39,385 nt of DNA from Candidatus Omnitrophota bacterium (GCA_030695725.1 JAUYPN010000032.1:1-39385), one strand, 5' to 3'. Shown: positions 1,986 to 31,641, counted from the first letter of the stretch. The notes: generated from the sequence alone by a model not told the origin. Program-made: numbers and translations.

Positions 1986-4900
1986 TTACCCGCACTTTGA
2001 ATAGCCGCAGGACTTACATACCATGCAGCCTTCTATGTGCCAGAGAGCTCCGCCGCAATCGGGACAGACCCCTACTATGTTCCCTGCCTTCTTCATAGTC
2101 CCTGTCTTTGGACTGCCGCCTGAAGCATCCGGCTGCGGTGAGTCTGTGGTTGTTTCGCTTGTGCTGACGGTGTTGTTGTTATTATTGGGGGTTTTCTTAT
2201 TCTTAGTATCCTGCGCCCTCTGTTCGATAGCCCGGGCTATCGCGTCACTGCACGAGAATATCCTTCCGCCCTTTTCCCAGCTGGGCGAAGGACAGCGTAT
2301 TCCGCGAAGCTGTTCGACTATGGATTCCACCTCTATGCCGCTGCGTAACGCCAGAGATACGAGGCGCCCTATCGCCTCTAACTGGCTCATGGCGCACCCG
2401 CCGGCCTTTCCCATATGCATGAATACCTCGAAAGGCTGGCTCTCTCCGTCTTCATTTATGGTTATATAGAGGTTGCCGCATCCTGTCGCGATCTTGGTGG
2501 TCGTTCCCACTATCACCGGCGGCCTCGGGCGCGGGCTTATCTTGACCCTTGTTTGGGTTTTTTGCTGTCCCTTAGTATCATCAGAAGGTATATTCAATAC
2601 CTGTTCATTGCGCGACTTGTCGCGGTATATGGTGACACCTTTGCATCCGCTCTTATAGGCCAGCATATAGATCGTCCTGACATCCTCTAAAGTGGCTTCG
2701 GACGGCAGATTGACAGTCTTTGAAACGGCGTTGTTCGTGTACTTCTGGAACGCGGCCTGCATCCTTATGTGCCATATGGCCTCTATGTCATGCGCGGTGA
2801 CGAAGAGCTCCTGCACATCGGCCGGCACTTCGGGCACGCCGTGTATCGAGCCCTTCTGAGCGATAAGGCTCATCGTCTCCGGCTTGTAGAAACCTCTTCT
2901 TTCGGCCACCTCCTGGAAATACGGATGCGCTTCTATCATCTTCGTATTATCCATGATGTTCCTTATATAGGTAATGGCGAATACGGGCTCGATGCCGCTT
3001 GAAGAGTTCGCGATTATCGAGAGCGTTCCGGTGGGGGCTATTGTAGTAAGGGTCGCGTTCCTTAAAGGCTTGGCGCTCTTTTTATCATATATGCTTCCTT
3101 TAAAGTTGGGGAACGCGCCCCTCTCTTTTGCCAGGGCCTCAGAGGCGCGGCGCGAGGTATACAGTATGAATTTCATCAGCTTTTCCGCCAGAGCGATCGC
3201 TTCTTCCGAGTCATATCTTATGCCCATCATGAGGAGCATGTCCGCAAACCCCATGACCCCGAGCCCGATCTTCCTGTTAGACTTCGTCATCTCGTCTATC
3301 TTCTTTATCGGATACAAATTCATGTCTATGACATTATCAAGAAAGTGTACCGATTTCTCGATTATTCCGGAAAGTTTATCCCAATCTATTTTTTTATCTT
3401 CGGTAACCATCTTCGCGAGATTTACGGAACCGAGGTTGCAGCTTTCATACGGCAAAAGAGGTTGCTCGCCGCAATTAGAAATACATAACCCATTACAAAT
3501 AAAGGAGCTAGAACAAGGTTCAGTTAAATCGTATACCTCCTCCTCTTTATTTTTTTCTACGCTCTTAATGCCTTCTAAAAATTCAGTCGAATAATACTGT
3601 TTAGTATAAAAATCTTTAATCTTTATACTATGTTTACCGCATAGAAAACCTATTTTATCAAGGAAATCCATAACAACATCTCTTGAAATCTCTAACTCAA
3701 AACAAATGCCATCTAATAAATAATTTCTCAAAACACCTGATTTCGAAGTATATTCGAATCCACGCCTTTCTTTTCTCGTTCTGTTGTATATTCTGGATTT
3801 TATTCCCATATTTAATAATAATATCTGCACGCCTTTTAAGAGCTTTTTGGATTTAGAAGTTAGCCTAACGTAAGAAGATTGGCCTGTCCTAAAATTAACT
3901 GTCCCATCCGCTGTAAATAAGCCCTGCAAAAATCCCGCCACAGCATCTTCTGTAGCTGTAAATATTGATTCCGGAACCTCTTTTTCATCCGCCTGCCACG
4001 GCTTCACTCCCAATTGCCTGAAGAAATCTACAAAGTACTTGCTGTGATACGACAAATGATATACGCCATTTTCCCTTACAACTTCTTTGACAGATAAGCC
4101 ATAGAATGTATTCATGACGTACTTAAGATAGGTAAGGATTTCTTCGTCTTGAGCGCTGAATGTTAATCCGATTCTGCAGTCTTTGTCTCCACCCCTAAGC
4201 CAACCGTCGCCTATTATATAGCCAACCGCCTGACCGAGCTGCCGTGTCCATCTATCCGGAAGATTCAATTTATACGTTTGTCCATTATCTCCTATATATT
4301 CATTTTTTACCTCAAATGGAAGCTTGCTATCCGGATTAAATCTTCCTTCACCGGACTGGATTAGTATTTTGTGGAAACCCGGCTTTAAATTTCTCATCAT
4401 GACCCATCCGCCTGTGGTCATTATCTTATGATCGGGCGTCGCAGTAATCTCATAGCCCGATTCTGTAGTAAGTTTCAGTGTTTCTTTGACACCAGATTTC
4501 CAGGCCTTTGATATAGTACTCAAGCCTACGCCCTGCTTGATTAAAGTCGACGCTGATCCTTCACTGCCGGATAGCGCTTCATATTTAATCTGAAGCACCC
4601 TGTCATCAGTAAGGACAGCTATGCCTCCATCGGAAAATTTCTTCGCGACATCCTTCATTCTCATGAGACCAAATTCTGTTGATATAAGCGATTCCCCGGA
4701 GATACATGGGTTCGTGGATTCGATCTGGCCCACCTTGGGCGTTGGATTATCTTTGTTAACTCTATCGATAAATATTATACCCGGTTCGCCGTTCTTCCAC
4801 GCCATCTGAATGATCATGTCGAAAACTTTTTTGGCGTTCATCTTCTGGACGGATTTTTTAGTTTTTGGGTCGATCAGATCATAATCTTCGCCGGCAAGAG

Positions 4901-6833
4901 CCTTCTTCATGAACTCTTCGGTGAGCGCCACGGATATGTTGAAGTTCGTTATATCTTTGTCGTTCTCTTTGCAGGAGATGAATTCGAGAATATCCGGATG
5001 GTCCACGCGCAATATTCCCATGTTAGCACCTCGACGAGTTCCGCCTTGAATTACAGCCTGGGTCGCGGCGTTAAATACCCTCATGAACGAGACCGGGCCG
5101 CTCGATACTCCGCCGGTGGAGCGCACTGGAGAGTTCTTCGCCCTCAGCCTCGAAAAACTGAACCCCGTCCCCCCTCCGGAATTATGGGTGATGAATCCGT
5201 TGGCTAAGTACGTATGCCTGCTGCGAACCGTGATATCATACGTGTCTCTTATCCCTAACGGGCTGACATCGGCAACCCTGGCAAAAAAGTATCCCTTATT
5301 TAAAAGGGTTTTCAGGAATTGCGGGCAGATCATCTTTTTATCCAGCACGGAAACGATTCTTTGTCTTGTTATCTCTCTCAGGTCCGATGGCCTGTTTATA
5401 ATATCTTCAAAATTAGAGCGGGCGTCGCGCCTGTCCCCAAAGCTGTCCAATTTTTCATACCATTCTTTGATCGGGATCCTCTGATTGGGAATGGCTTCCC
5501 CTCTTTTAAAGATCTCATTATGGTCAACCATGCATAATCTTGCCCGCTGTCTGGCAAGGAGAAACCCTATTTTTTTCTCAAATTTGATAAATCCTTCCTT
5601 CGCGCATATGGAGACCTGATAGCTGTCTGTGCAGTTTTGATAGCTCCTGCGGGTTGGTATACCGATGTAAAACATCAAAGACTGTAATTCTTCTGAAAGC
5701 GCTTTGGAAGCGGTCGACAGTGTTATGTGGCCGCTCTCTCTGATACAGCCGTCGGTGGAAAAGAGCCCTCTTAAAAACGCGCAGACGATATCTTCATCAG
5801 CCTTAAAAATAATTTCCGGGATACGCGCTTCTCTTGAAGAAAGTTTGGTGAAGCCCAGAAAGGCGAACCATGCCTTTATCATCACGCTCAGGATGCCTAC
5901 CTCATACCCCTTACCTGATTTGTGGGCAATTGTAGCTTTTTTATTAAAGACGGTTTTTGATAAATTCCCTATGATCCTGACCATCTCTATATCATCCGGC
6001 CCGACAGAAAATCTTATTCCGTCTCTGTGGTTCGATCCGTCGCCTGTATAAATCCCCACCAATTCCGCTAATTCACGGGTCAACTCAATAGGCAGATCTA
6101 TCTCCCGCGCTTTGAAACACCCGGAATTTAACTGCTTCTTCTTTTTATATTTAAAATCGGGCAGGCGCCTGTTCCCTCCGTGTAGTTTTTCGCATGGTTT
6201 CATCGCGACCCAATCGCCCTTATCGAGCTCCCCTATCTCGCGCCAGATAAACTCTCCGTTATCGTTCACGACTAAAAGCTTGTGTTCCGCCGTCCCCTTT
6301 ATCGTGTAGCCTCTGTCCGTCGAAACTTCATAAACAATCTGCTGCTTATTTTTATAAACTCCCTCTATTTTAAAATAACCTTCATCAGTCAGAATGGCGG
6401 CGCCGGTTTTCAGCTCATCCAGGCGTTTCATTCCGTCTTTTGTCGAGACGAGCGTTTCCGGAACAAGGCATTTATGAATTATGGCGGTATCTTTGATCGT
6501 TTCGAAGATCGCTTCCATCGAATCTTCTATCGGCAGGACAAAACACGCGGATAGCTGCTGCAGGTCGCGGCCCGCGTTCATGAGCGTCGGCGAGTTCGGC
6601 AAAAATTCGAGCCGCGCCATCATATCAAAAAATTCTTCCTCCGCCTTTTTTATATCCGCTTCGCTCTTACCGTAATATGAGTCCGCTGTAGCTATGTTCT
6701 TCGCGACGCGCCGGAATAATTCCTCCGGCGTCTCGATCAGCTTACCGGATGCGTCCTTCTTCAGGTATCTCTTCTCGAGAACCTTCATCGCGTTCGCCGA
6801 CAATTCCTTATTCACGTCCGCTTTACCGCCCAT
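1986..6833 (-). CDS. nrdJ: class II (adenosylcobalamin-dependent) ribonucleotide reductase, interrupted by two inteins
   Basis: 1615-aa ORF. Removing residues 122-551 and 710-1120 restores the class II RNR motifs ...AIIHK/SGGGTGFSFSRLR... and ...ESTNP/CGEQPLLPYESCNLGS... The C-terminus carries a Cys-rich ribbon, CPDCGG...CMVCKSCGYSKCG. The combined extein is 774 aa. Confidence 0.95.
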   Translation of the reverse strand: MGGKADVNKELSANAMKVLEKRYLKKDASGKLIETPEELFRRVAKNIATADSYYGKSEADIKKAEEEFFDMMARLEFLPNSPTLMNAGRDLQQLSACFVLPIEDSMEAIFETIKDTAIIHKCLVPETLVSTKDGMKRLDELKTGAAILTDEGYFKIEGVYKNKQQIVYEVSTDRGYTIKGTAEHKLLVVNDNGEFIWREIGELDKGDWVAMKPCEKLHGGNRRLPDFKYKKKKQLNSGCFKAREIDLPIELTRELAELVGIYTGDGSNHRDGIRFSVGPDDIEMVRIIGNLSKTVFNKKATIAHKSGKGYEVGILSVMIKAWFAFLGFTKLSSREARIPEIIFKADEDIVCAFLRGLFSTDGCIRESGHITLSTASKALSEELQSLMFYIGIPTRRSYQNCTDSYQVSICAKEGFIKFEKKIGFLLARQRARLCMVDHNEIFKRGEAIPNQRIPIKEWYEKLDSFGDRRDARSNFEDIINRPSDLREITRQRIVSVLDKKMICPQFLKTLLNKGYFFARVADVSPLGIRDTYDITVRSRHTYLANGFITHNSGGGTGFSFSRLRAKNSPVRSTGGVSSGPVSFMRVFNAATQAVIQGGTRRGANMGILRVDHPDILEFISCKENDKDITNFNISVALTEEFMKKALAGEDYDLIDPKTKKSVQKMNAKKVFDMIIQMAWKNGEPGIIFIDRVNKDNPTPKVGQIESTNPCISGESLISTEFGLMRMKDVAKKFSDGGIAVLTDDRVLQIKYEALSGSEGSASTLIKQGVGLSTISKAWKSGVKETLKLTTESGYEITATPDHKIMTTGGWVMMRNLKPGFHKILIQSGEGRFNPDSKLPFEVKNEYIGDNGQTYKLNLPDRWTRQLGQAVGYIIGDGWLRGGDKDCRIGLTFSAQDEEILTYLKYVMNTFYGLSVKEVVRENGVYHLSYHSKYFVDFFRQLGVKPWQADEKEVPESIFTATEDAVAGFLQGLFTADGTVNFRTGQSSYVRLTSKSKKLLKGVQILLLNMGIKSRIYNRTRKERRGFEYTSKSGVLRNYLLDGICFELEISRDVVMDFLDKIGFLCGKHSIKIKDFYTKQYYSTEFLEGIKSVEKNKEEEVYDLTEPCSSSFICNGLCISNCGEQPLLPYESCNLGSVNLAKMVTEDKKIDWDKLSGIIEKSVHFLDNVIDMNLYPIKKIDEMTKSNRKIGLGVMGFADMLLMMGIRYDSEEAIALAEKLMKFILYTSRRASEALAKERGAFPNFKGSIYDKKSAKPLRNATLTTIAPTGTLSIIANSSSGIEPVFAITYIRNIMDNTKMIEAHPYFQEVAERRGFYKPETMSLIAQKGSIHGVPEVPADVQELFVTAHDIEAIWHIRMQAAFQKYTNNAVSKTVNLPSEATLEDVRTIYMLAYKSGCKGVTIYRDKSRNEQVLNIPSDDTKGQQKTQTRVKISPRPRPPVIVGTTTKIATGCGNLYITINEDGESQPFEVFMHMGKAGGCAMSQLEAIGRLVSLALRSGIEVESIVEQLRGIRCPSPSWEKGGRIFSCSDAIARAIEQRAQDTKNKKTPNNNNNTVSTSETTTDSPQPDASGGSPKTGTMKKAGNIVGVCPDCGGALWHIEGCMVCKSCGYSKCG
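3474..4706 (-). mobile_element. intein 2 (411 aa) with LAGLIDADG homing-endonuclease domain
   Basis: Starts CISGESLI, has block B TPDHKIM, and ends ...GLCISN followed by Cys+1 of CGEQ. LAGLIDADG motifs are LGQAVGYIIGDGWL and AGFLQGLFTADGT. Boundary codons were checked (aca at 4704-4706, att at 3474-3476). It is visibly more AT-rich than the flanking extein. Confidence 0.9.
5181..6470 (-). mobile_element. intein 1 (430 aa) with LAGLIDADG homing-endonuclease domain
   Basis: Starts with Cys (CLVPETLV), has a TxxH block (TAEHKLL), and ends ...GFITHN followed by Ser+1. Two LAGLIDADG-type motifs are present (LAELVGIYTGDGS, AFLRGLFSTDGC). Boundary codons were checked on the sequence (gca at 6468-6470, att at 5181-5183). 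Confidence 0.9.
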
Positions 6834-12522: not shown

Positions 12523-12660
12523 GACATAGCTACAACGGGCACAACGGGCAAGCGTGGACCTTGCGGGGTACCGCCTTCCGCGAACACTTTCCCCGCCACT
12601 ACAAGTCTTTTTGTGATAGACTATATGATGTGATAAAGATACAGTAAAAAAGGAGCCGGA

Positions 12661-13050
12661 TTGAGCCTTGTAGACCTTATAGTCGCTTGTCTAATAATCG
12701 CCATAATGGTAGTCAGTTCATCAGCTATTCTTGAATATACCAAAGACAAGCTGGTTGATTCGGAGAATTACTATGAAGCGACCAAGTTTTCGATGGCCAC
12801 GCTGGAAGAGCTTCGGCCGCTTGACTATACGGATCCCGCGCTGGACATTACCCCTCCAGACCAGCGCCACGCCGCGGATCTGCCATTTCCATGCAATTTA
12901 AGAGACAGGTATAGCGGCAACAGGTCGTACGTGGTTAGCGAACAAAACTGGGACGTAGCCAGCAGCTATAAAGAGATAATCGTGGCCACCTCATGGGTAT
13001 ATAAAGGCCAAAACAAATCGGTTTCATTAGGCGTAGTAAAAAGACAATGA
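12661..13050 (+). CDS. pseudopilin/minor-pilin-like protein (GspI/PilV-like size), no leader peptide
   Basis: TTG start 5 nt after AGGAG. The N-terminus MSLVDLIVACLIIAIMVVSSSAIL resembles the mature hydrophobic N-terminus of type IV pilins, with an acidic residue at position 5. The stop overlaps the next gene (ATGA). Confidence 0.5.
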   Translation: MSLVDLIVACLIIAIMVVSSSAILEYTKDKLVDSENYYEATKFSMATLEELRPLDYTDPALDITPPDQRHAADLPFPCNLRDRYSGNRSYVVSEQNWDVASSYKEIIVATSWVYKGQNKSVSLGVVKRQ

Positions 13051-13451
13051 TCAGCCTTGACACTAAAAAGGGATTTTCTTTAACGCTGATAGCGGTTTTC
13101 GTCACCATAGTCGCGGCCGCTTTGGTGCCGGCTTTCTGCAACGTCATGTTTTTCACTACGCGCGCGCCAGCCACCGATGCCTTATTCCAGCAGGCATATT
13201 ACAACGCAAACTGTGGGGTTGAATATGCCATGTTTATAATAGAGCATCGCGATCCGCTTGATCCTGCTACTTGGCCGCAAGGAAATTCTATCCCATGCAA
13301 CTTCCCGGCAGGCGCAGGAAATTTTACGATTACCATAACGTCTGACCCAGTAGCCGGTTTCAACATAAGATCGATAGGTACCGCGGGAACGATGACAGCG
13401 ACCATCAACAGAGTCCATGTTGCCGCAGGAAGGATAGAGGAGTGGCAATAA
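13047..13451 (+). CDS. minor-pilin-like protein (PilX/GspK-like N-terminus)
   Basis: MISLDTKKG/FSLTLIAVFVTIVAAALV is a class III signal-peptide-like leader with Gly at -1 and no Glu5. It is followed by QQAYYNANCGVEYA, as in PilX-type minor pilins. Confidence 0.55.
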   Translation: MISLDTKKGFSLTLIAVFVTIVAAALVPAFCNVMFFTTRAPATDALFQQAYYNANCGVEYAMFIIEHRDPLDPATWPQGNSIPCNFPAGAGNFTITITSDPVAGFNIRSIGTAGTMTATINRVHVAAGRIEEWQ

Positions 13452-16144
13452 ATCTTACTTTGAAGAAGGCCGTTACTATCGTAGAGCTCATAATAGTCAT
13501 GGCAGCGTCCTCAGTAATCCTCCTAGCCGCATTCTCTATCCTGATAAGCCAGTTTGGATATGTAGCCGTATTCAGAATAGAGTCCGAGCTTAAGGGCGAG
13601 GCGGCCTATATTATAGAAAGGATGAAGAAGATCGTAGCAAATTCCGAGCACGTCAATATTATAGTCGGCGGCGCTTCAGTAGATGTTTATGATAGAACAG
13701 GGATCAATGTCACAGGCGCTTTTACGGTAGCTGCCCCGAATCTAACCTATACACCTGCAGCAAGCGGTATGCCAGAGACGATATCGAATAAAATAGGCGG
13801 CCTCACATTTGCCGATGCCCGCAGCATCACCGGCAATCTTACCGACATAACCGTGCTAAGCGTAGCTCTTAGAACTCGAGATCCGAGATACCAGAGCGCC
13901 TCAAACTCCAATATAATAACAAGCATGGCCTGCCGCCTCGCGCCTAATCCCGTAACGGTCGAAAACATTGGAGACAGTCATGGAATTAATATTAGAGGTA
14001 ACAGATTCTACAGAAGCATACAGGCCGCTCTCAACGATGCTTTTTTCCAGGCAAACGATGAGATAAGGTGCGTTGGAAGGGTATCGGGTTTTTTCGACGG
14101 GATATTCCTGGAAAACGTTGTTATAAGCAGATCGGTTATATTGAGAGGCGGCTTCGACAGGACTTTTGATGCTCAGACCTTTAATCCCAACGATCCCAAT
14201 GCCGGCACTCCCTCAACGATAGACGGCAACGGCAGCCCGACAAACAACAGAAGAGTGATATCCTGTGCCGCTAATTCCGTGCCAAATTTTACTATAAACG
14301 GATTCATCATACAAAATGGCAGAATGGCGGGGGGTGGCGGTGGGGGTATAAATTTTTATTCATGGGGCGCTGGCGCTACCAACGTTATCATTACCGACAA
14401 TATCGTAAGAAATAATACTGCTGACAACGGCGCCGGAATAAATGTTGGACAAAAAGGGCCCTTATCCACACTTGTAATTCAAAATAATCAAATATCAGGA
14501 AACCAAGCCGGCTGGGATGGTGGTGGAATATCTGGCGACATCTGGCTCTCCTCTAACGTTACCATTGCAAACAACCTTATAGCAGGAAATAGCGGCGGCC
14601 GTATGGGTGCGGGAATAAATATCAGAACCAACGAAACCGCCACTAACTTGACCATAGCCAACAATATCATAAGAAACAACGCGTTAATGGGCGGTTGGCC
14701 GGGAGGCGGGATAAATGCCGGCATCGGGGACGCTTCTTCCTGTATCATCATCAATAATATCATAGCGGGAAATGCTGCCCCAGAAGGCCATGGCGGCGGG
14801 ATATTTATTGACTCATACGGTACGGCCTTGGCCGTGATAGCCAATAATCATATAGGTGAATACGGGACAGCGACAGGCTACCCTGGCTTAAGCATATATG
14901 GGACAGCGACAGGCAACACAGGCCAGAGAGGAGGCGGCATACGGGCTGTAAATAATTTGACTATCGCTAATAATACTCTGTTTAGAAATCGTACTTTAGG
15001 CGATAGTGATAGTGGAGGGATCTTTGCAACTACCGGCAATCTCACGAATATTACTAACAATATGGTAGAAGAAAACGCAACTGACGGCGTTGGCGGCGGG
15101 ATATCCTGTTTTTCGTTGTCCCAGGGGGGAGTGATCTCCAATTGCAATGTTACCAATAATATCGTAAACGCCAATATCGGGGGCGGGATAAGTGCCGCAT
15201 CCCAAACTACCAGCCTGGAGAGCGTGGTCAATATTGATAACAATACCGTAAGGGGTAATTTCGGCGGAGGGATAACTCTTAATAGCAGCATCCCCGCCAG
15301 CCCCCTTGCAACCCTTAGAGTTACTAACAATACTGTAACAGAAAATATACCCCTCGTCGCTACCGGCAGCGGAGGCGCAGGAATATTTATTAATAATCAG
15401 GGCGATGGTTCTACCGTAGCTAAAAATATTATAAGCCTTAATAGAACCAACGGCAACGGCGGCGGGATATTAGTCGACCTCAACAGACTCCGTCTTGACA
15501 TAAACAATAATATCATAGCGGGAAACACTGCTGCAAGATTTGGCGGCGGCATATCTGCCAATGGTGACCTCACTGGTCCAGTAAATCTGACCAACAACAC
15601 TATAGTGGAAAATAGCGCCGGCACGAATGGCGGCGGAATTTACACTGTTACTCAAGCAATTACAGCTGGCCCAGTCAATATCATAAATTCTATAAGTTTT
15701 GGCAACATTAACCGTGATCTATTCGCCGGGGGCACTTCACAAGACACTAATGTTAGTTTTTCAGACATAGGTGTAAGTAACGGCCTAATTAACTGGGACA
15801 TACCCATATCCTTCACCAACATAACCGACCCGCCTTGGTTCGTAAATGCGGCAGCCGGCGATTACCGTTTGCAAGATGTCGTTGGAAACAATGACATAAT
15901 AGACGGCGGCAACCCTATATTTACCGATATTAGTAGGCCGCCAGGCCTGAGGCTCCCAACGAGCGACATGGGCGCTTATGGCGGCCCCGGCGCCACTGTA
16001 ACGATCGGCTTTCTGATGCCTGCCGCCGACATTCCTGGCACACAATGGATAACAGAGAATAGGATAGGCTTTTTGGCGCCCGCCGCGGATGATGGAGCTA
16101 CCGCAAACATAAGGGAAGATATTATAGGCACATATACGCCATAG
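13442..16144 (+). CDS. 900-aa protein: pilin-like N-terminus fused to a right-handed parallel beta-helix (PbH1) repeat domain
   Basis: N-terminus MAINLTLKKA/VTIVELIIVMAASSVILLAAF (Glu5 present, Ala at -1). About 15 consecutive repeats of the form (I/V)xNNxIxxNxaxxGGGI follow. The end is DPPWFVNAAAGDYRLQ...IIDGGNP...SDMGAYGGPG. A 10-nt overlap links it to the preceding gene. Confidence 0.75.
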   Translation: MAINLTLKKAVTIVELIIVMAASSVILLAAFSILISQFGYVAVFRIESELKGEAAYIIERMKKIVANSEHVNIIVGGASVDVYDRTGINVTGAFTVAAPNLTYTPAASGMPETISNKIGGLTFADARSITGNLTDITVLSVALRTRDPRYQSASNSNIITSMACRLAPNPVTVENIGDSHGINIRGNRFYRSIQAALNDAFFQANDEIRCVGRVSGFFDGIFLENVVISRSVILRGGFDRTFDAQTFNPNDPNAGTPSTIDGNGSPTNNRRVISCAANSVPNFTINGFIIQNGRMAGGGGGGINFYSWGAGATNVIITDNIVRNNTADNGAGINVGQKGPLSTLVIQNNQISGNQAGWDGGGISGDIWLSSNVTIANNLIAGNSGGRMGAGINIRTNETATNLTIANNIIRNNALMGGWPGGGINAGIGDASSCIIINNIIAGNAAPEGHGGGIFIDSYGTALAVIANNHIGEYGTATGYPGLSIYGTATGNTGQRGGGIRAVNNLTIANNTLFRNRTLGDSDSGGIFATTGNLTNITNNMVEENATDGVGGGISCFSLSQGGVISNCNVTNNIVNANIGGGISAASQTTSLESVVNIDNNTVRGNFGGGITLNSSIPASPLATLRVTNNTVTENIPLVATGSGGAGIFINNQGDGSTVAKNIISLNRTNGNGGGILVDLNRLRLDINNNIIAGNTAARFGGGISANGDLTGPVNLTNNTIVENSAGTNGGGIYTVTQAITAGPVNIINSISFGNINRDLFAGGTSQDTNVSFSDIGVSNGLINWDIPISFTNITDPPWFVNAAAGDYRLQDVVGNNDIIDGGNPIFTDISRPPGLRLPTSDMGAYGGPGATVTIGFLMPAADIPGTQWITENRIGFLAPAADDGATANIREDIIGTYTP

Positions 16145-16198
16145 CACGCCATAGCGCTTGGCTTGACCATTGAACCGCAACGGGTATATAATACCGGC

Positions 16199-16864
16199 AT
16201 GCAAGCCGTAAAGGGAATCGTGAAAAATTTTCTGAACCTGATCTACCCGCTCCATTGCTTGGGCTGCGAGACTGCGCTCGAGGCTATTAATGAGCTTCGT
16301 CTGTGCGGGCACTGCATAGCCTCCATAAATCGCAACGCGATGCCGCCTTTCGAACTCGACTCCTCTCCGGTCCTCGCGTACTCGGCATGTCTCTATGACA
16401 GCGGACTGAAAGAGCTCGTCCACCGGTTTAAATATAAAGGTAAGACGATCCTCGCTAAGATATTTTCAAAGCTCATGATCGATTATATAAAAGATAACCC
16501 CGAGATCGCGGATGTCGATCTGGTAACGGTCGTCCCCCTGCATAGGGAGCGCCTTAAAGCAAGAGAGTTTAACCAGTCTCTCATGATCGCCAATCCCATA
16601 TCGAAAGAATACTCCCTTATGCTTACAAACACTCTGGAGAAGACGCGTAAGACGCGATATCAAAATGAGCTATTGAAGGGCGAGAGGATTAAGAATCTTA
16701 AGAGCGCTTTCAGGGTTTCGCCCAAGGCGGATATCAAAGATAAAAGGATACTCCTGATAGACGACGTGATGACGACCGGTTCCACGCTCGGAGAATGCGC
16801 GAAGACTCTTTTAAACGGCGGCGCTCGATGCGTGACATGCTTTACACTGGCGCGGGGAATATAA
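16199..16864 (+). CDS. comF: ComF-family protein (phosphoribosyltransferase-like, competence-associated)
   Basis: N-terminal Cys pairs HCLGC...CGHC and the PRT motif ILLIDDVMTTGST. The track ORF starts at 16163 (TTG). ATG at 16199 is preferred. Confidence 0.8.
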   Translation: MQAVKGIVKNFLNLIYPLHCLGCETALEAINELRLCGHCIASINRNAMPPFELDSSPVLAYSACLYDSGLKELVHRFKYKGKTILAKIFSKLMIDYIKDNPEIADVDLVTVVPLHRERLKAREFNQSLMIANPISKEYSLMLTNTLEKTRKTRYQNELLKGERIKNLKSAFRVSPKADIKDKRILLIDDVMTTGSTLGECAKTLLNGGARCVTCFTLARGI

Positions 16865-28744: not shown

Positions 28745-30982
28745 CTATTCTTCAACACGTAGATTTATGAACAATAATACCAGCGCTGACAGGTTGATAA
28801 GCGCAATGGCGAAGCATGTTTTTGGTATTCCCAGTATCGGAATCAAGAATATGCCCGTTAAGAGCGCTCCTAAAAATGAGCCGAAGAGGTCTATACCGTA
28901 ACTCAATCCGCCCACCCTGCCCGCATCCTTCTTTTGACCGAGCAATACCCTGCTGGCGAGAGCGAATTGGGCGCCGCCTATCGATCCGGCTATTACGGAT
29001 AAGACCGGAAATAAGGGATCCGGACAAAATCTTGAGAATACCGCGCCCAATAGTACGGAGAAAATTATGAAATCACCCTGCACCGCCATAAGAAATATCC
29101 TGTCGCGTTTCGTTTCAGGTATAAATTTTATGACAAAGACAGCGCCCAGGGCCAGGCCCGCCATAAAAGCGGTGAGGATAATGCCCAATTTATAGAAGAG
29201 GTACCCGTACATCGTCTGAAATGTGAGCAGTATGAGCAGCTGGAAAGCCATAGAGCTAAAGCCGCCGGTCATCACCGCCATAAGCGAGGATCTCTTAAAA
29301 GACCACCTGCGCGTTATGGAGATAACCGCGAGCAGGATCATAAAGATGCCTATGAAGCGCCATATTACAGATTCGGTGACCGATCTTAAGATATTTGAAA
29401 ATACGGAATTCCTGAATAGCGTCGTCCAGAATATGAGCCCGTAATAATACGCGACGGGCCTCGAATCATGATTTATTACCGCGCCGTTGCCGCCCTTTAT
29501 GATCTTTTCGGAATAAGCTATTTCTTCCGGGGAAAGCTTTGAGAAGAGGTAATAATCCCGCACATACTGCGTATCGAGCGCTCTGGCGAGAGTCCTCTCT
29601 TCTAATATTTTATGATCATAAGTTAGACTGCCGATCGAATCCGACGCCAGGAAGTACGCGGTTTCACCCGGTATCACGATCACTTCGCTGAATACAGATC
29701 TTAAAGTAGCGTAGATGGATCTTAAAAATTCCGCCAGGGACTTGCTTATATAGCTCTCGCTTGATGTAAGCCCGAAAGATACGAGGCCGCTTTCCTTAAG
29801 CGCCTTCTTGACCTCATTGAAAAATTCTGACGTGTAATATCTATTAACCTCTGCCGTATAGGGATCGCCGGTGTGAATTATGATACAATCGTATAATTCT
29901 ATTGCGTTTTTGACAAAAAATCTTCCGTCCGTGTTTTTTATCGAGACTCTGGTGTCTTTGAGCGCTTTATAATAACTTTCGGGCAGATTATTTTCCGATA
30001 TCTTTATTATGGACGGGTCGAGCTCAACATAGTCCACTTTCTCGACGCGGTGTTTCAGTATCTCTCCCACCAGTCCGCCGGAGCCTCCGCCTATTAAAAG
30101 CACTCTCCTTGGATCCTTATGTTCCAACAGCGCCAGATGTACGGCCTCTTCCGAGTTCGGCTTATCCGGTATCGTGTAAAGACGAAGCCCATTATTGAAT
30201 AAGGAATAATCTTCCCCTCTCCTGGCTATCAGGATATTCCCATATATCGAATTTTTGGTGTCCAGGATCTCGTAGCCCTGCCACTGCTTCTGAAGCGAGT
30301 AACGTTCTATCGCTTTCAAGCCGCCGAAAGACCACAGCGCAATGATTACAACTGAAAGAAATAAACCGGTTGCTTTAAAAATTTTGTCATTGCGAGCAAT
30401 GACGGACCTCAATAAAAACGCGGCCATGATATTTAACAGCGCAAGTATGGCTGCGATATGGAGCGCATCGAATGATCTGATAAGTATAAAACTTGTGACG
30501 GTACCGCCTATTATCGAACCTATGGCCTCGAGAATATAGACGGTTCCTATTCCCCGCGCGCCGTCACTTTGCCGGGAAGCATATATACTGCAGCCAAGCG
30601 GGAAGATAAAACCCATCAATACACAGATAGGCGCCAGAATCGCAAAGCTCGCGGCCATTATCGGAAATAGCCCTACGATCTCTCCGGGGTTGACCCCGAG
30701 GAAGACCTTAATGAATTTTACCGCCGCGATCCCCGCTATAAGCAGTGATCCTAAAGTCATCTGACATAGAGAAAAGGCCTCTGCATTCGGCCTTATCCTG
30801 TCCGCGTACTTTCCGAATACGGCGCTGCCCAAGGCCCCGCTGATGAGCCAGCCGGCAAGTATGAAACTTATCGATAGCTCATTCCCGTAAAATACGACCA
30901 AGAGCTCCCGCATATAAACTATCTGCGAGGCCATCGCCGTGGCGCCTGCCAGGATTATCGATAACGATATAATTTTTTTCAT
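28745..30982 (-). CDS. membrane-embedded spermidine-synthase-like (aminopropyltransferase fold) fusion protein
   Basis: ATG at 30982 overlaps the upstream stop (ATGA). An N-terminal block of about 7-8 TM helices is followed by a central SpeE-like domain (VLLIGGGSGGLVGEILKH..VEKVDYVELDP...IIHTGDP) and a C-terminal block of about 5-6 TM helices. Confidence 0.8.
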   Translation of the reverse strand: MKKIISLSIILAGATAMASQIVYMRELLVVFYGNELSISFILAGWLISGALGSAVFGKYADRIRPNAEAFSLCQMTLGSLLIAGIAAVKFIKVFLGVNPGEIVGLFPIMAASFAILAPICVLMGFIFPLGCSIYASRQSDGARGIGTVYILEAIGSIIGGTVTSFILIRSFDALHIAAILALLNIMAAFLLRSVIARNDKIFKATGLFLSVVIIALWSFGGLKAIERYSLQKQWQGYEILDTKNSIYGNILIARRGEDYSLFNNGLRLYTIPDKPNSEEAVHLALLEHKDPRRVLLIGGGSGGLVGEILKHRVEKVDYVELDPSIIKISENNLPESYYKALKDTRVSIKNTDGRFFVKNAIELYDCIIIHTGDPYTAEVNRYYTSEFFNEVKKALKESGLVSFGLTSSESYISKSLAEFLRSIYATLRSVFSEVIVIPGETAYFLASDSIGSLTYDHKILEERTLARALDTQYVRDYYLFSKLSPEEIAYSEKIIKGGNGAVINHDSRPVAYYYGLIFWTTLFRNSVFSNILRSVTESVIWRFIGIFMILLAVISITRRWSFKRSSLMAVMTGGFSSMAFQLLILLTFQTMYGYLFYKLGIILTAFMAGLALGAVFVIKFIPETKRDRIFLMAVQGDFIIFSVLLGAVFSRFCPDPLFPVLSVIAGSIGGAQFALASRVLLGQKKDAGRVGGLSYGIDLFGSFLGALLTGIFLIPILGIPKTCFAIALINLSALVLLFINLRVEE

Positions 30983-31641
30983 ATTCTTTTTAATATCAGT
31001 CCCAGCCCCAGCATCAACAATAATAACGCGCACATTGTCTTAAATATGACAGTAGCGGTCTTTGACCTTACAAGCGCGGCGGGAATGCGCGTCAAAAGCC
31101 CTGTGATCACGCCGATGGTGATCAGTCCCGATAGAAACGTCCCCAGTCCGAAGAAGAACGCATAGAGAGCGCCGTCGAGAAGGCCTTTTGACATAAGGGC
31201 TATGTCGAAGAGAAGCGCCAGAAGCGGAGCGCACGGACTTATGCCTATCAGAAAACCGAAAGCGAACATTCCGCCGAAATTGAGCATTTTACTTCGGGCG
31301 GTCGGACAAGCGCAGTTACCGCTATTTTTGCCCGTAAATAAGATAATCGCGAAGAGGATAGTCACCGCCCCGGCAAGCGGCTCGAGATATGATGAAAAAT
31401 GGAGGTCGGTGAATTTTTTTAAAACAGCGCCGGAGAGCCCGGCCAACACCCCCAACAATACATAAGCAAGCAGTCTGCCGGAAAGAAACGTGAATACATC
31501 TCTGAATATCGCCGTCGGACCTTTCCCGCTTCCGACTATATAAGTGACGAGGACAGGCGCGCAGATCAAAAGACACGGCCCGGCGAGGCCGAAACTGAAG
31601 CCAATCCCGAAGATCTGCAGATAAGTTACTAAGGTGCCCAT
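30979..31641 (-). CDS. CcdA/DsbD_2-like thiol-disulfide membrane protein
   Basis: Six hydrophobic helices, with Cys in P-C contexts (GLAGPCLLICAPVL and GISPCAPLL) as in CcdA/DsbD cores. ATG at 31641 is preferred over the track's TTG at 31665. Confidence 0.55.
   Translation of the reverse strand: MGTLVTYLQIFGIGFSFGLAGPCLLICAPVLVTYIVGSGKGPTAIFRDVFTFLSGRLLAYVLLGVLAGLSGAVLKKFTDLHFSSYLEPLAGAVTILFAIILFTGKNSGNCACPTARSKMLNFGGMFAFGFLIGISPCAPLLALLFDIALMSKGLLDGALYAFFFGLGTFLSGLITIGVITGLLTRIPAALVRSKTATVIFKTMCALLLLMLGLGLILKRI

Follow-up and report, generated by a model that had tools for sequence, protein, structure and literature searches.

Three coupled pilin-like genes of a Candidatus Omnitrophota bacterium, one of them bearing a beta-helix head, as a candidate tip set of a type IV filament

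What could three overlapping genes for pilin-like proteins be doing in a stretch of DNA that encodes no pilus machinery, the last of them running on into a large beta-helix? The question is raised by 39,385 nucleotides (nt) from a Candidatus Omnitrophota bacterium (GCA_030695725.1 JAUYPN010000032.1:1-39385; the whole stretch is called the window below), in which positions 12,661-16,144 encode the proteins that we call P1, P2 and P3. An original prediction had taken this trio for a compact module presenting a beta-helix domain at the tip of a type IV filament. After profile, structural and neighbourhood comparisons this is still the best reading, supported by the coupled and conserved trio and by the pilin-type P3 fusion: with a probability of roughly 55%, we favour three minor type IV pilins that form a tip set resembling GspI, GspJ and GspK, in which the J-like member bears its own beta-helix adhesin.

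The three open reading frames (ORFs) are on the plus strand and, with their overlaps, exactly where they had been placed. P1 (12661-13050; 129 amino acids (aa), TTG start) is a leaderless pilin-like protein, GspI/PilV-like by position and by weak profile matches. P2 (13047-13451; 134 aa), which overlaps P1 at an ATGA, is pilin-like and GspK/PilX-like, and P3 (13442-16144; 900 aa, GTG start), which overlaps P2 by 10 nt, is a modular pilin made up of a pilin module, a right-handed beta-helix and a conserved tail. A Shine-Dalgarno sequence, AAGGAG, is read directly at 12650-12655 (plus strand), 5 nt before the TTG of P1.

The N-terminus of P3 reads MAINLTLKKA/VTIVELIIVMA, with Glu at position 5 (Glu5) and, as first described, Ala instead of Gly at position -1; cleavage by a prepilin peptidase is predicted after Ala10, at the end of the leader MAINLTLKKA (13442-13471, plus strand). 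The pilin module comprises aa 1 to ~170 (13442-13951, plus strand) and ends at an invariant Cys164-Arg165. The window protein itself scores 12-15 bits against the N_methyl model of Pfam (PF07963, cut-off 21.2) and 11.9 against that of NCBIfam (TIGR02532, cut-off 16.3), and its pilin nature rests on family-level evidence rather than on its own hidden Markov model score. N_methyl matches the N-termini of 10/10 members of the P3 family (best E=1.7e-4), two relatives (P0175 and P0193) exceed its cut-off, and another (P0148) is named by NCBI as a prepilin-type N-terminal cleavage/methylation protein. In the five best homologues (P0002-P0006, 29-38% identity) a leader, a small residue at -1, the motif xTL[IV]E and a hydrophobic helix open a domain of ~170 residues, which closes with the invariant Cys-Arg and is followed by a beta-helix.

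A profile of the P3 N-terminal module, searched by full HMMER against 1.84 billion representatives, matched 4446 proteins at E<=1e-3. Among the matches listed, ~40 are large fusions of 480-1270 aa and many others are proteins of 150-200 aa, several of which align across nearly the whole module; eight of ten such small homologues tested lie over the N_methyl cut-off. The motif [A/G/S]/x-T-L-[IV]-E5 is found in 42 of 44 large family members, with Ala (21), Gly (11) or Ser (10) at -1 and Glu at +5 in all 42 in which the motif was located. Against the PDB the module profile retrieved pilins only, namely PilE1 (6e-3), geopilin and MshA. In an AlphaFold2 (AF2) model of P3 aa 1-181, a helix at 3-66 is followed by eight strands, with a predicted local distance difference test score (pLDDT) of 77.8, so that the modelled module is lollipop-like, a long helix with a beta-sheet. 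Taken together, these results indicate that the first ~170 residues of P3 are a genuine pilin module.

It could be argued that none of the three proteins is a pilin, the N-termini being plain Sec signal peptides or signal anchors that belong to a secreted beta-helix enzyme with two small accessory proteins. When the profiles suggested in the original prediction (N_methyl, PilX and beta-helix) were applied, Beta_helix was found on P3, N_methyl stayed below its cut-off there, and neither P1 nor P2 matched any Pfam or NCBIfam model; these results, together with the lack of a pilin match in a Foldseek search, would suit such an explanation, yet it would have to accommodate hydrophobic stretches of 23-33 residues that are acidic at position 5 and lack an AxA-type site, and a motif, [KR]-[AGS]/x-[ST]-L-[IV]-E, that runs through the whole family. 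N_methyl matches, besides the P3 family, three of the five P1 orthologues scanned, which are the leader-bearing ones; the only solved structures that the profiles match are pilins (PilE1, geopilin, Thermus PilA and MshA), and small proteins above the N_methyl cut-off are homologues of the P3 module along its entire length. We regard the non-pilin explanation as extremely improbable.

The second line of evidence is the company that P3 keeps. We examined ~20 kb around each match, and the P3 homologues, which the original prediction had proposed to check for a pilin-like N-terminus and for P1/P2 neighbours, keep both. In the window and at L001/L002, L003/L004, L005, L006, L088, L092 and L095, the large pilin gene is immediately preceded by P1-like and P2-like genes; at L087 and L096 at least a P2-like gene is present, and a pilin-like gene directly precedes the large pilin in every related locus having upstream sequence. 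The order is P1-P2-P3 in the clade of the window and P2-P1-P3 at L001 and L092. Different housekeeping genes flank the trio at each locus, and pilus machinery is near none of them. A scan of genome contigs with the P3 alignment yielded no relatives, and a metagenome scan only two short contigs.

The coupling of the genes is conserved as well. In the 10-nt P2/P3 overlap, (A/G)TGGCAAT(A/G)A, the same bases encode the terminal W-Q-stop of P2 and the initial M-A-I/M of P3, and this sequence is kept in four loci (window 13442-13451, L003 10001-10010, L006 3363-3372 and L088 1712-1721). At L087 a 10-nt overlap is retained with a different sequence, and on the contig of P0003, for which there is an annotation record only and no DNA, a 150-aa gene upstream overlaps P3 by 10 nt. 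The ATGA of the P1/P2 overlap is kept in two loci. Given an identity of only ~35-38% between the full-length P3 proteins compared, the conservation of the P2/P3 overlap argues for obligatory co-production, and P1, P2 and P3 can be described, from these comparisons, as a conserved, translationally coupled unit. In one database protein of 551 aa (P0130), a P2-like sequence runs in frame into a P3-like pilin::beta-helix, which reflects either a miscall (read-through or frameshift) or a genuine joining of the two partners.

The large member of the set varies in number and in kind. From one to five large pilin fusions follow the P2-like and P1-like genes across the loci; on the 378-kb contig of L001 (10001-22113), five tandem pilin::large-head genes, of 756, 786, 806, 874 and 798 aa, stand behind a single P2/P1 pair, and their heads diverge far more than their pilin modules. 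Tandem trios occur at L006 and tandem large genes at L093. The heads joined to the pilin module across the relatives are Beta_helix, Beta_helix plus an LVIVD propeller, Ig-like, or SDGGYII-type repeats to which no family is assigned. This exchange of heads on one pilin module corresponds, as far as the sequences tell, to the behaviour described for modular pilins.

In the window, the head of P3 is a right-handed parallel beta-helix of ~14-15 coils (13994-15841, plus strand; Pfam Beta_helix, E=7e-18), with GGGI/NNxIxxN motifs at 14327-15676. Between aa 300 and 745 we counted 14 G[GA]GI and 12 NNxIxxN motifs, in agreement with the ~15 repeats noticed at the outset. The GDYRL...DMGAYGG ending noticed with them is also present, as a C-terminal cap region at 15857-15985 (plus strand; GDYRL at aa 806-810, DMGAYGG at aa 842-848), and is common to generic secreted beta-helix proteins. 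P3 homologues carry PF13229, PF05048 and PF02415, with NosD- and Chlam_PMP-type repeats, and some are annotated 'choice-of-anchor Q'; the coils of P3 are of the same GGxI/NNxI kind, Pmp/choice-of-anchor-Q-like, with generic Beta_helix similarity. Catalytic beta-helix families (pectate lyase, GH28, polysaccharide lyases) gave no match to P3, which matched the generic Beta_helix only. An adhesive rather than catalytic role of this putative surface domain is only weakly favoured.

At its extreme C-terminus P3 carries a duplicated tail motif, ITENRIGF ... IREDIIGTY (16049-16135, plus strand; aa 870-898). The tail consensus, (D/N)xxTxxI-R-E-D-x-I-G-T-Y, is present twice in the window protein, and, of the 44 family members, 18 have the pattern [IVLYF][RKN]E[DNS]x[IV]G[TR][YF], always inside the last ~20 residues, while a minority of members end GYIGS...DYIE instead. 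The tail might act in docking, as a strand, or else as a cap or sorting signal. Two cysteines were observed at the junction of module and head: Cys164 (motif IACR, 13925-13939), at the end of the pilin module, is invariant, and Cys210 (motif IRC[MV]G, ~14069), at the start of the head, is conserved in most P3 relatives. A disulfide between them may clamp the pilin module to the head.

P2 was found to begin as originally read, MISLDTKKG/FSLTLIAV, with Gly at -1 (KKG/FSLTL) and no Glu5, followed by QQAYYNANCGVEYA. Members of its family lack Glu5; their leader is basic and ends in Gly or Ala, the helix motif AYYxAxxGVEYA is conserved, and W-Q stands at the C-terminus. The orthologue at L003 (P0269) is annotated by the Joint Genome Institute as 'Tfp pilus assembly protein PilX' and matches GspK below the cut-off (E=0.029).

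P1 departs from the original description, according to which each protein begins with a short polar segment; this is true of P2 and P3, whereas P1 opens at the hydrophobic helix. Its N-terminus is M-S-L-V-D-L-I-V-A, hydrophobic from the first residue, with Asp at position 5 counted from Met1. The in-frame sequence upstream (12625-12663) is ATG ATG TGA TAA AGA TAC AGT AAA AAA GGA GCC GGA TTG; because stops lie 24-30 nt upstream of the TTG and no start codon stands in between, P1 starts at the TTG, without a leader. The same is seen in three related loci, namely the window (12661-12680, MSLVDL), L006 (2553-2575, MNIIDL) and L088 (866-890, MNIVDL), in all of which the start places Met at pilin position +1 and Asp at +5; in L006 and L088, which hold the closest P1 orthologues, GGGAG precedes the ATG and an in-frame stop lies upstream. 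A non-canonical start further upstream was considered and ruled out in all three loci, given the in-frame stops and the lack of a start codon upstream.

More distant P1 orthologues retain a normal leader and Glu5: MKLQYSSRKA/FTIVE at L005, MAARIALNRKS/LTLLE at L001, MLLSFRSKRA/LGMIE at L003 and MRAPFLSKRG/VSMIE at L095, the annotated start of the last two being an internal ATG. The P1 family profile (alignment A1) matches pilin N-termini in the PDB (E=1.4e-3), and one orthologue matches PilV below the cut-off (E=1.4e-3). The codons before P1 in the window (12625-12663) would translate as M-M-stop-stop-R-Y-S-K-K-G-A-G/L-S-L-V-D; this looks like a relic prepilin leader severed by two stops, with the present Shine-Dalgarno sequence AAGGAG inside the former leader codons. 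P1 is possibly a pilin that needs no prepilin peptidase. In a full-text literature search we found no paper using the phrase 'leaderless pilin'.

With regard to the classes of minor pilin to which the three might belong, P0165, a small protein homologous to the P3 module, is informative, being encoded by gene 3 in an operon of four pilin-like genes. The best NCBIfam matches of this operon, all below curated cut-offs, are ComGD/GspH for gene 1, ComGE/GspI for gene 2 and ComGF plus PpdB for gene 3; gene 4 aligns with the P2 profile in hhalign (E=6e-5, probability 65%, 115 columns). PpdB also gave a sub-threshold match among the orthologues (E=0.011). The curated GspI, GspJ, GspK, PilV, PilW and PilX families gave no match to P1, P2 or P3 of the window. 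As a lead rather than a demonstration, P1 may be I/V-like, the P3 module J/W/ComGF-like and P2 K/X-like.

Taking these results into consideration, we propose the following course of events for the tip set. P1, P2 and P3 would be produced together from a single translationally coupled unit and inserted into the inner membrane by their N-terminal hydrophobic helices, after which a prepilin peptidase would trim P3 after Ala10 and P2 after Gly9. P1, P2 and the P3 module would then associate as a small priming or tip complex of the GspI/J/K (PilV/W/X) kind; as P2 has no Glu5, it would sit uppermost. Beneath the complex, the major pilin would be extended by a type IV filament machine with its genes elsewhere in the genome, so that the beta-helix of P3, of ~700 residues, would be exposed at the tip of the filament, where it would most likely serve in adhesion to the surface of a host or substrate.

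The pilin-type signal might instead be an anchor or export tag only. The trio would then stay in the inner membrane, in the periplasm or in a short pseudopilus-type complex, without display on an extended pilus, and such a complex may serve one of the systems of the Omnitrophota that resemble type II secretion systems (T2SS). Bacteria of the related PVC group (Planctomycetes, Verrucomicrobia and relatives) have hundreds of prepilin-type proteins, too many for pilus subunits, which counts for this alternative, as do the leaderless P1 of the window clade and the position of the trio, never beside pilus genes. Several type IV filament-class systems are present in Omnitrophota, and many small genes with class III signals lie near T2SS-like loci (bioRxiv 10.1101/2023.11.21.568195). 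An anchor, however, would not account for the strict Glu5 of the P3 relatives (42/42), a residue concerned with the docking of filament subunits and not with anchoring, nor for an I/J/K-like composition with a Glu5-less member, which is typical of tip or priming complexes; moreover, exchangeable heads of surface type (beta-helix, LVIVD propeller, Ig-like) fit exposure outside the cell better. We consider that the anchor or export alternative is unlikely.

Several points weigh against the tip-set reading itself. The PilV, GspK, ComGF and PpdB matches on which the class assignment leans are all below curated cut-offs, and when the profiles of P1, the P3 N-terminal module and P2 were compared by hhalign with GspI, GspJ and GspK of Escherichia coli, the signal and helix alone aligned, so that orthology to I/J/K is not demonstrable by sequence. 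The AF2 model of P2, built from 6 sequences, is poor (pLDDT 45.7, a helix at 6-67 only). Foldseek comparison of the P3-module model with the PDB gave no match below E=0.3, a result that is uninformative rather than negative, probably because the solved pilins do not include the N-terminal helix. For bacterial prepilin peptidases, Ala and Ser are not canonical residues at -1, and since P1 of the window clade has no leader at all and has basic residues after its helix, neither its topology nor its entry into a filament is certain. The head of P3 has no catalytic or ligand-binding signature to tell an adhesin from an enzyme, and, being rigid and ~700 residues long, it must pass a secretin or be assembled outside. 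Finally, the 39-kb contig holds no filament machinery, major pilin or peptidase, the presence of which in the genome we infer from the phylum.

The absence of machinery from the window is normal: all the loci sit amid housekeeping genes, and Omnitrophota almost always have type IVa pili (T4aP) elsewhere. Within every Omnitrophota class, most genomes are reported to have T4aP genes, with 135/141 in Velamenicoccia and 4/9 in the least-covered class (PMC10066038). As the original prediction had observed, the window lacks such genes: family-profile scans identified its 20 other large ORFs as housekeeping genes, and none of them matched PilB, PilC, PilD, PilQ or Gsp families, or any type IV filament or T2SS family. 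Apart from the trio, no ORF of the window has a class III signal motif.

A competence link had been suggested by comF, which starts at 16199, 55 nt after P3, as reported. Accordingly, the trio could form the end at which a Com-type pilus, acting with ComF, receives DNA, in the manner of the beta-solenoid pilin ComZ and PilA2 in Thermus; in ComZ, likewise a pilin, a beta-solenoid module has a part in binding DNA (PMC8179133), and the best sub-threshold matches of the related small pilins are the ComGD, ComGE and ComGF models. Of the proposed conserved order P1-P2-P3-comF, however, the trio part stood and the comF part did not. None of the six other loci with a readable downstream gene has comF after the trio, paralogues, HisG, H+-PPase, TyrRS or a transposase being found there instead. 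In addition, comF carries a promoter-like site of its own (TTGACC-18-TATAAT, 16163-16192), sigma-70-like with an 11/12 match and ending 7 nt before the ATG; the gene is therefore probably transcribed alone, possibly as a nearly leaderless mRNA. P3 matches no PDB chain at E<=1, ComZ included, its beta-helix is appended after the pilin module and not inserted, and a DNA-binding signature was not found. The adjacency of comF is coincidental; we rejected the competence link on synteny and on the promoter-like site, and the DNA-receptor explanation is very unlikely.

The remaining genes of the window include those for an intein-bearing ribonucleotide reductase, RlmN, an SNF transporter, LptF/G, an aldolase, AhcY, MetK and components of the phosphotransferase system, in addition to ComF; MetK is 83% identical to that of Candidatus Omnitrophota metagenome-assembled genomes, which assigns the window to this phylum. 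The large subunit of ribonucleotide reductase (1986-6833, minus strand; 1615 aa) is interrupted by the intein (an Intein_splicing and two LAGLIDADG_3 matches) and has a C-terminal TSCPD domain. A spermidine-synthase domain occupies the middle (aa 294-420) of a 762-aa protein (28745-31033, minus strand), whose long flanks have no assigned domain and whose gene is adjoined by that of a DsbD_2-like membrane protein and by three radical-SAM genes.

Returning to the tip set, a broader reading can be put forward as a possible though doubtful one. The trio would be a self-contained, plug-in tip cassette of the Omnitrophota, a minimal I/J/K priming complex with exchangeable J heads that, in the window clade, includes the first leader-free pilin (Asp5, independent of the peptidase); ultra-small, host-dependent cells would use it to latch onto different hosts, and the C-terminal IREDxIGTY tail would be a docking or quality-control element. 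If the tip-set reading is true, the trio is a candidate for surface recognition by ultra-small Omnitrophota, which are thought to be attached to or to prey on other cells, by means of a pilus tip that carries an exchangeable beta-helix adhesin of its own alongside two partner pilins dedicated to it. The idea of modular pilins, developed in streptococci, would likewise be extended to an uncultivated phylum of diderms. The trio is a compact three-protein set open to expression and testing, and the leaderless P1 would be a natural test of whether pilins can do without leader and peptidase; nothing here upsets the accepted view of type IV filaments.

How does the trio compare with known systems? 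In organisation it resembles GspI-GspJ-GspK and PilV-PilW-PilX, which are also adjacent, co-translated minor-pilin genes with one Glu5-less member (GspK or PilX; here P2). The trio differs from both in having no GspH/FimU-type fourth member and no PilY1, in passing no curated family model, in standing outside a machinery operon and in the leaderless P1 of the window clade; compared with GspI/J/K, its extra domain is on the J-like and not on the K-like member. The 'Verru_Chthon cassette proteins A-D' of the PVC group (NCBIfam) form repeated small pilin-signal cassettes that include a large one and lie away from pilus machinery, as in the trio. Their models matched none of P1, P2 and P3 at E<=1, and only a distant small relative matched two of them, far below cut-off, namely cassette protein C (TIGR02599, E=7e-5) and cassette protein D (TIGR02596, E=0.024).

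PilY1/PilC tip adhesins would resemble P3 in being large, variable-headed adhesins presented at the tip of a type IV pilus through a minor-pilin complex; PilY1, however, is not a pilin and docks by a C-terminal beta-propeller (IPR008707), whereas P3 has its own pilin module, and Pfam and NCBIfam found no PilY1 domain in P3. The original prediction had set out from this class, on the premise that large tip proteins are not pilins, and here it was wrong, since modular pilins are established (Streptococcus sanguinis PilB and PilC, CofB, GspK, ComZ). TcpB of Vibrio cholerae is a large type IVb initiator minor pilin of the CofB kind. CofB of enterotoxigenic E. coli is, like P3, a large minor pilin with extra beta-rich C-terminal domains, thought to be located at the tip and to prime assembly (PMC8179133). 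CofB and TcpB differ in belonging to type IVb systems, in being encoded inside the pilus operon, in forming homotrimers without dedicated I/K-like partners and in C-terminal folds unlike that of P3.

ComZ resembles P3 in kind of head, although the ComZ solenoid is inserted within the pilin fold and the P3 helix follows the pilin module instead. ComZ and P3 have no detected sequence similarity, and a competence link of P3 is not supported. In Thermus thermophilus, ComZ is a pilin with a beta-solenoid/beta-helix domain, like P3, and pairs with a small minor pilin, PilA2, at the tip (PMC8179133).

Modular pilins were defined by Raynaud et al. 2021, with >1,200 proteins in 264 architectures and with CofB, GspK and the beta-solenoid pilin ComZ discussed among them (PMC8179133), and P3, which joins an N-terminal pilin module to a further domain that is not peculiar to pilus biology, falls within their definition. 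PilB (vWA) and PilC (lectin) of S. sanguinis are built in the same way, from an N-terminal pilin module and a bulky functional module for display on a filament, and PilC acts together, in one complex, with PilA, a small minor pilin that is its partner (PMC9934059, Shahin et al. 2023). Compared with these streptococcal proteins, P3 comes from a diderm phylum, has a beta-helix of ~700 aa with a conserved C-terminal tail, and is always encoded with two dedicated small partners, away from pilus loci. The combination of N-methyl motif and right-handed beta-helix (IPR012902-IPR039448) is listed in Dataset S1 of Raynaud et al. 2021 for 3 proteins (PMC8179133); the architecture is already catalogued, and the trio is another, uncharacterised example of modular pilins. 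What seems to be new to description is the fixed three-gene cassette away from machinery, the clade of leaderless P1, the predominance of Ala and Ser at -1, and the conserved tail [IV]RED x IGTY at the extreme C-terminus.

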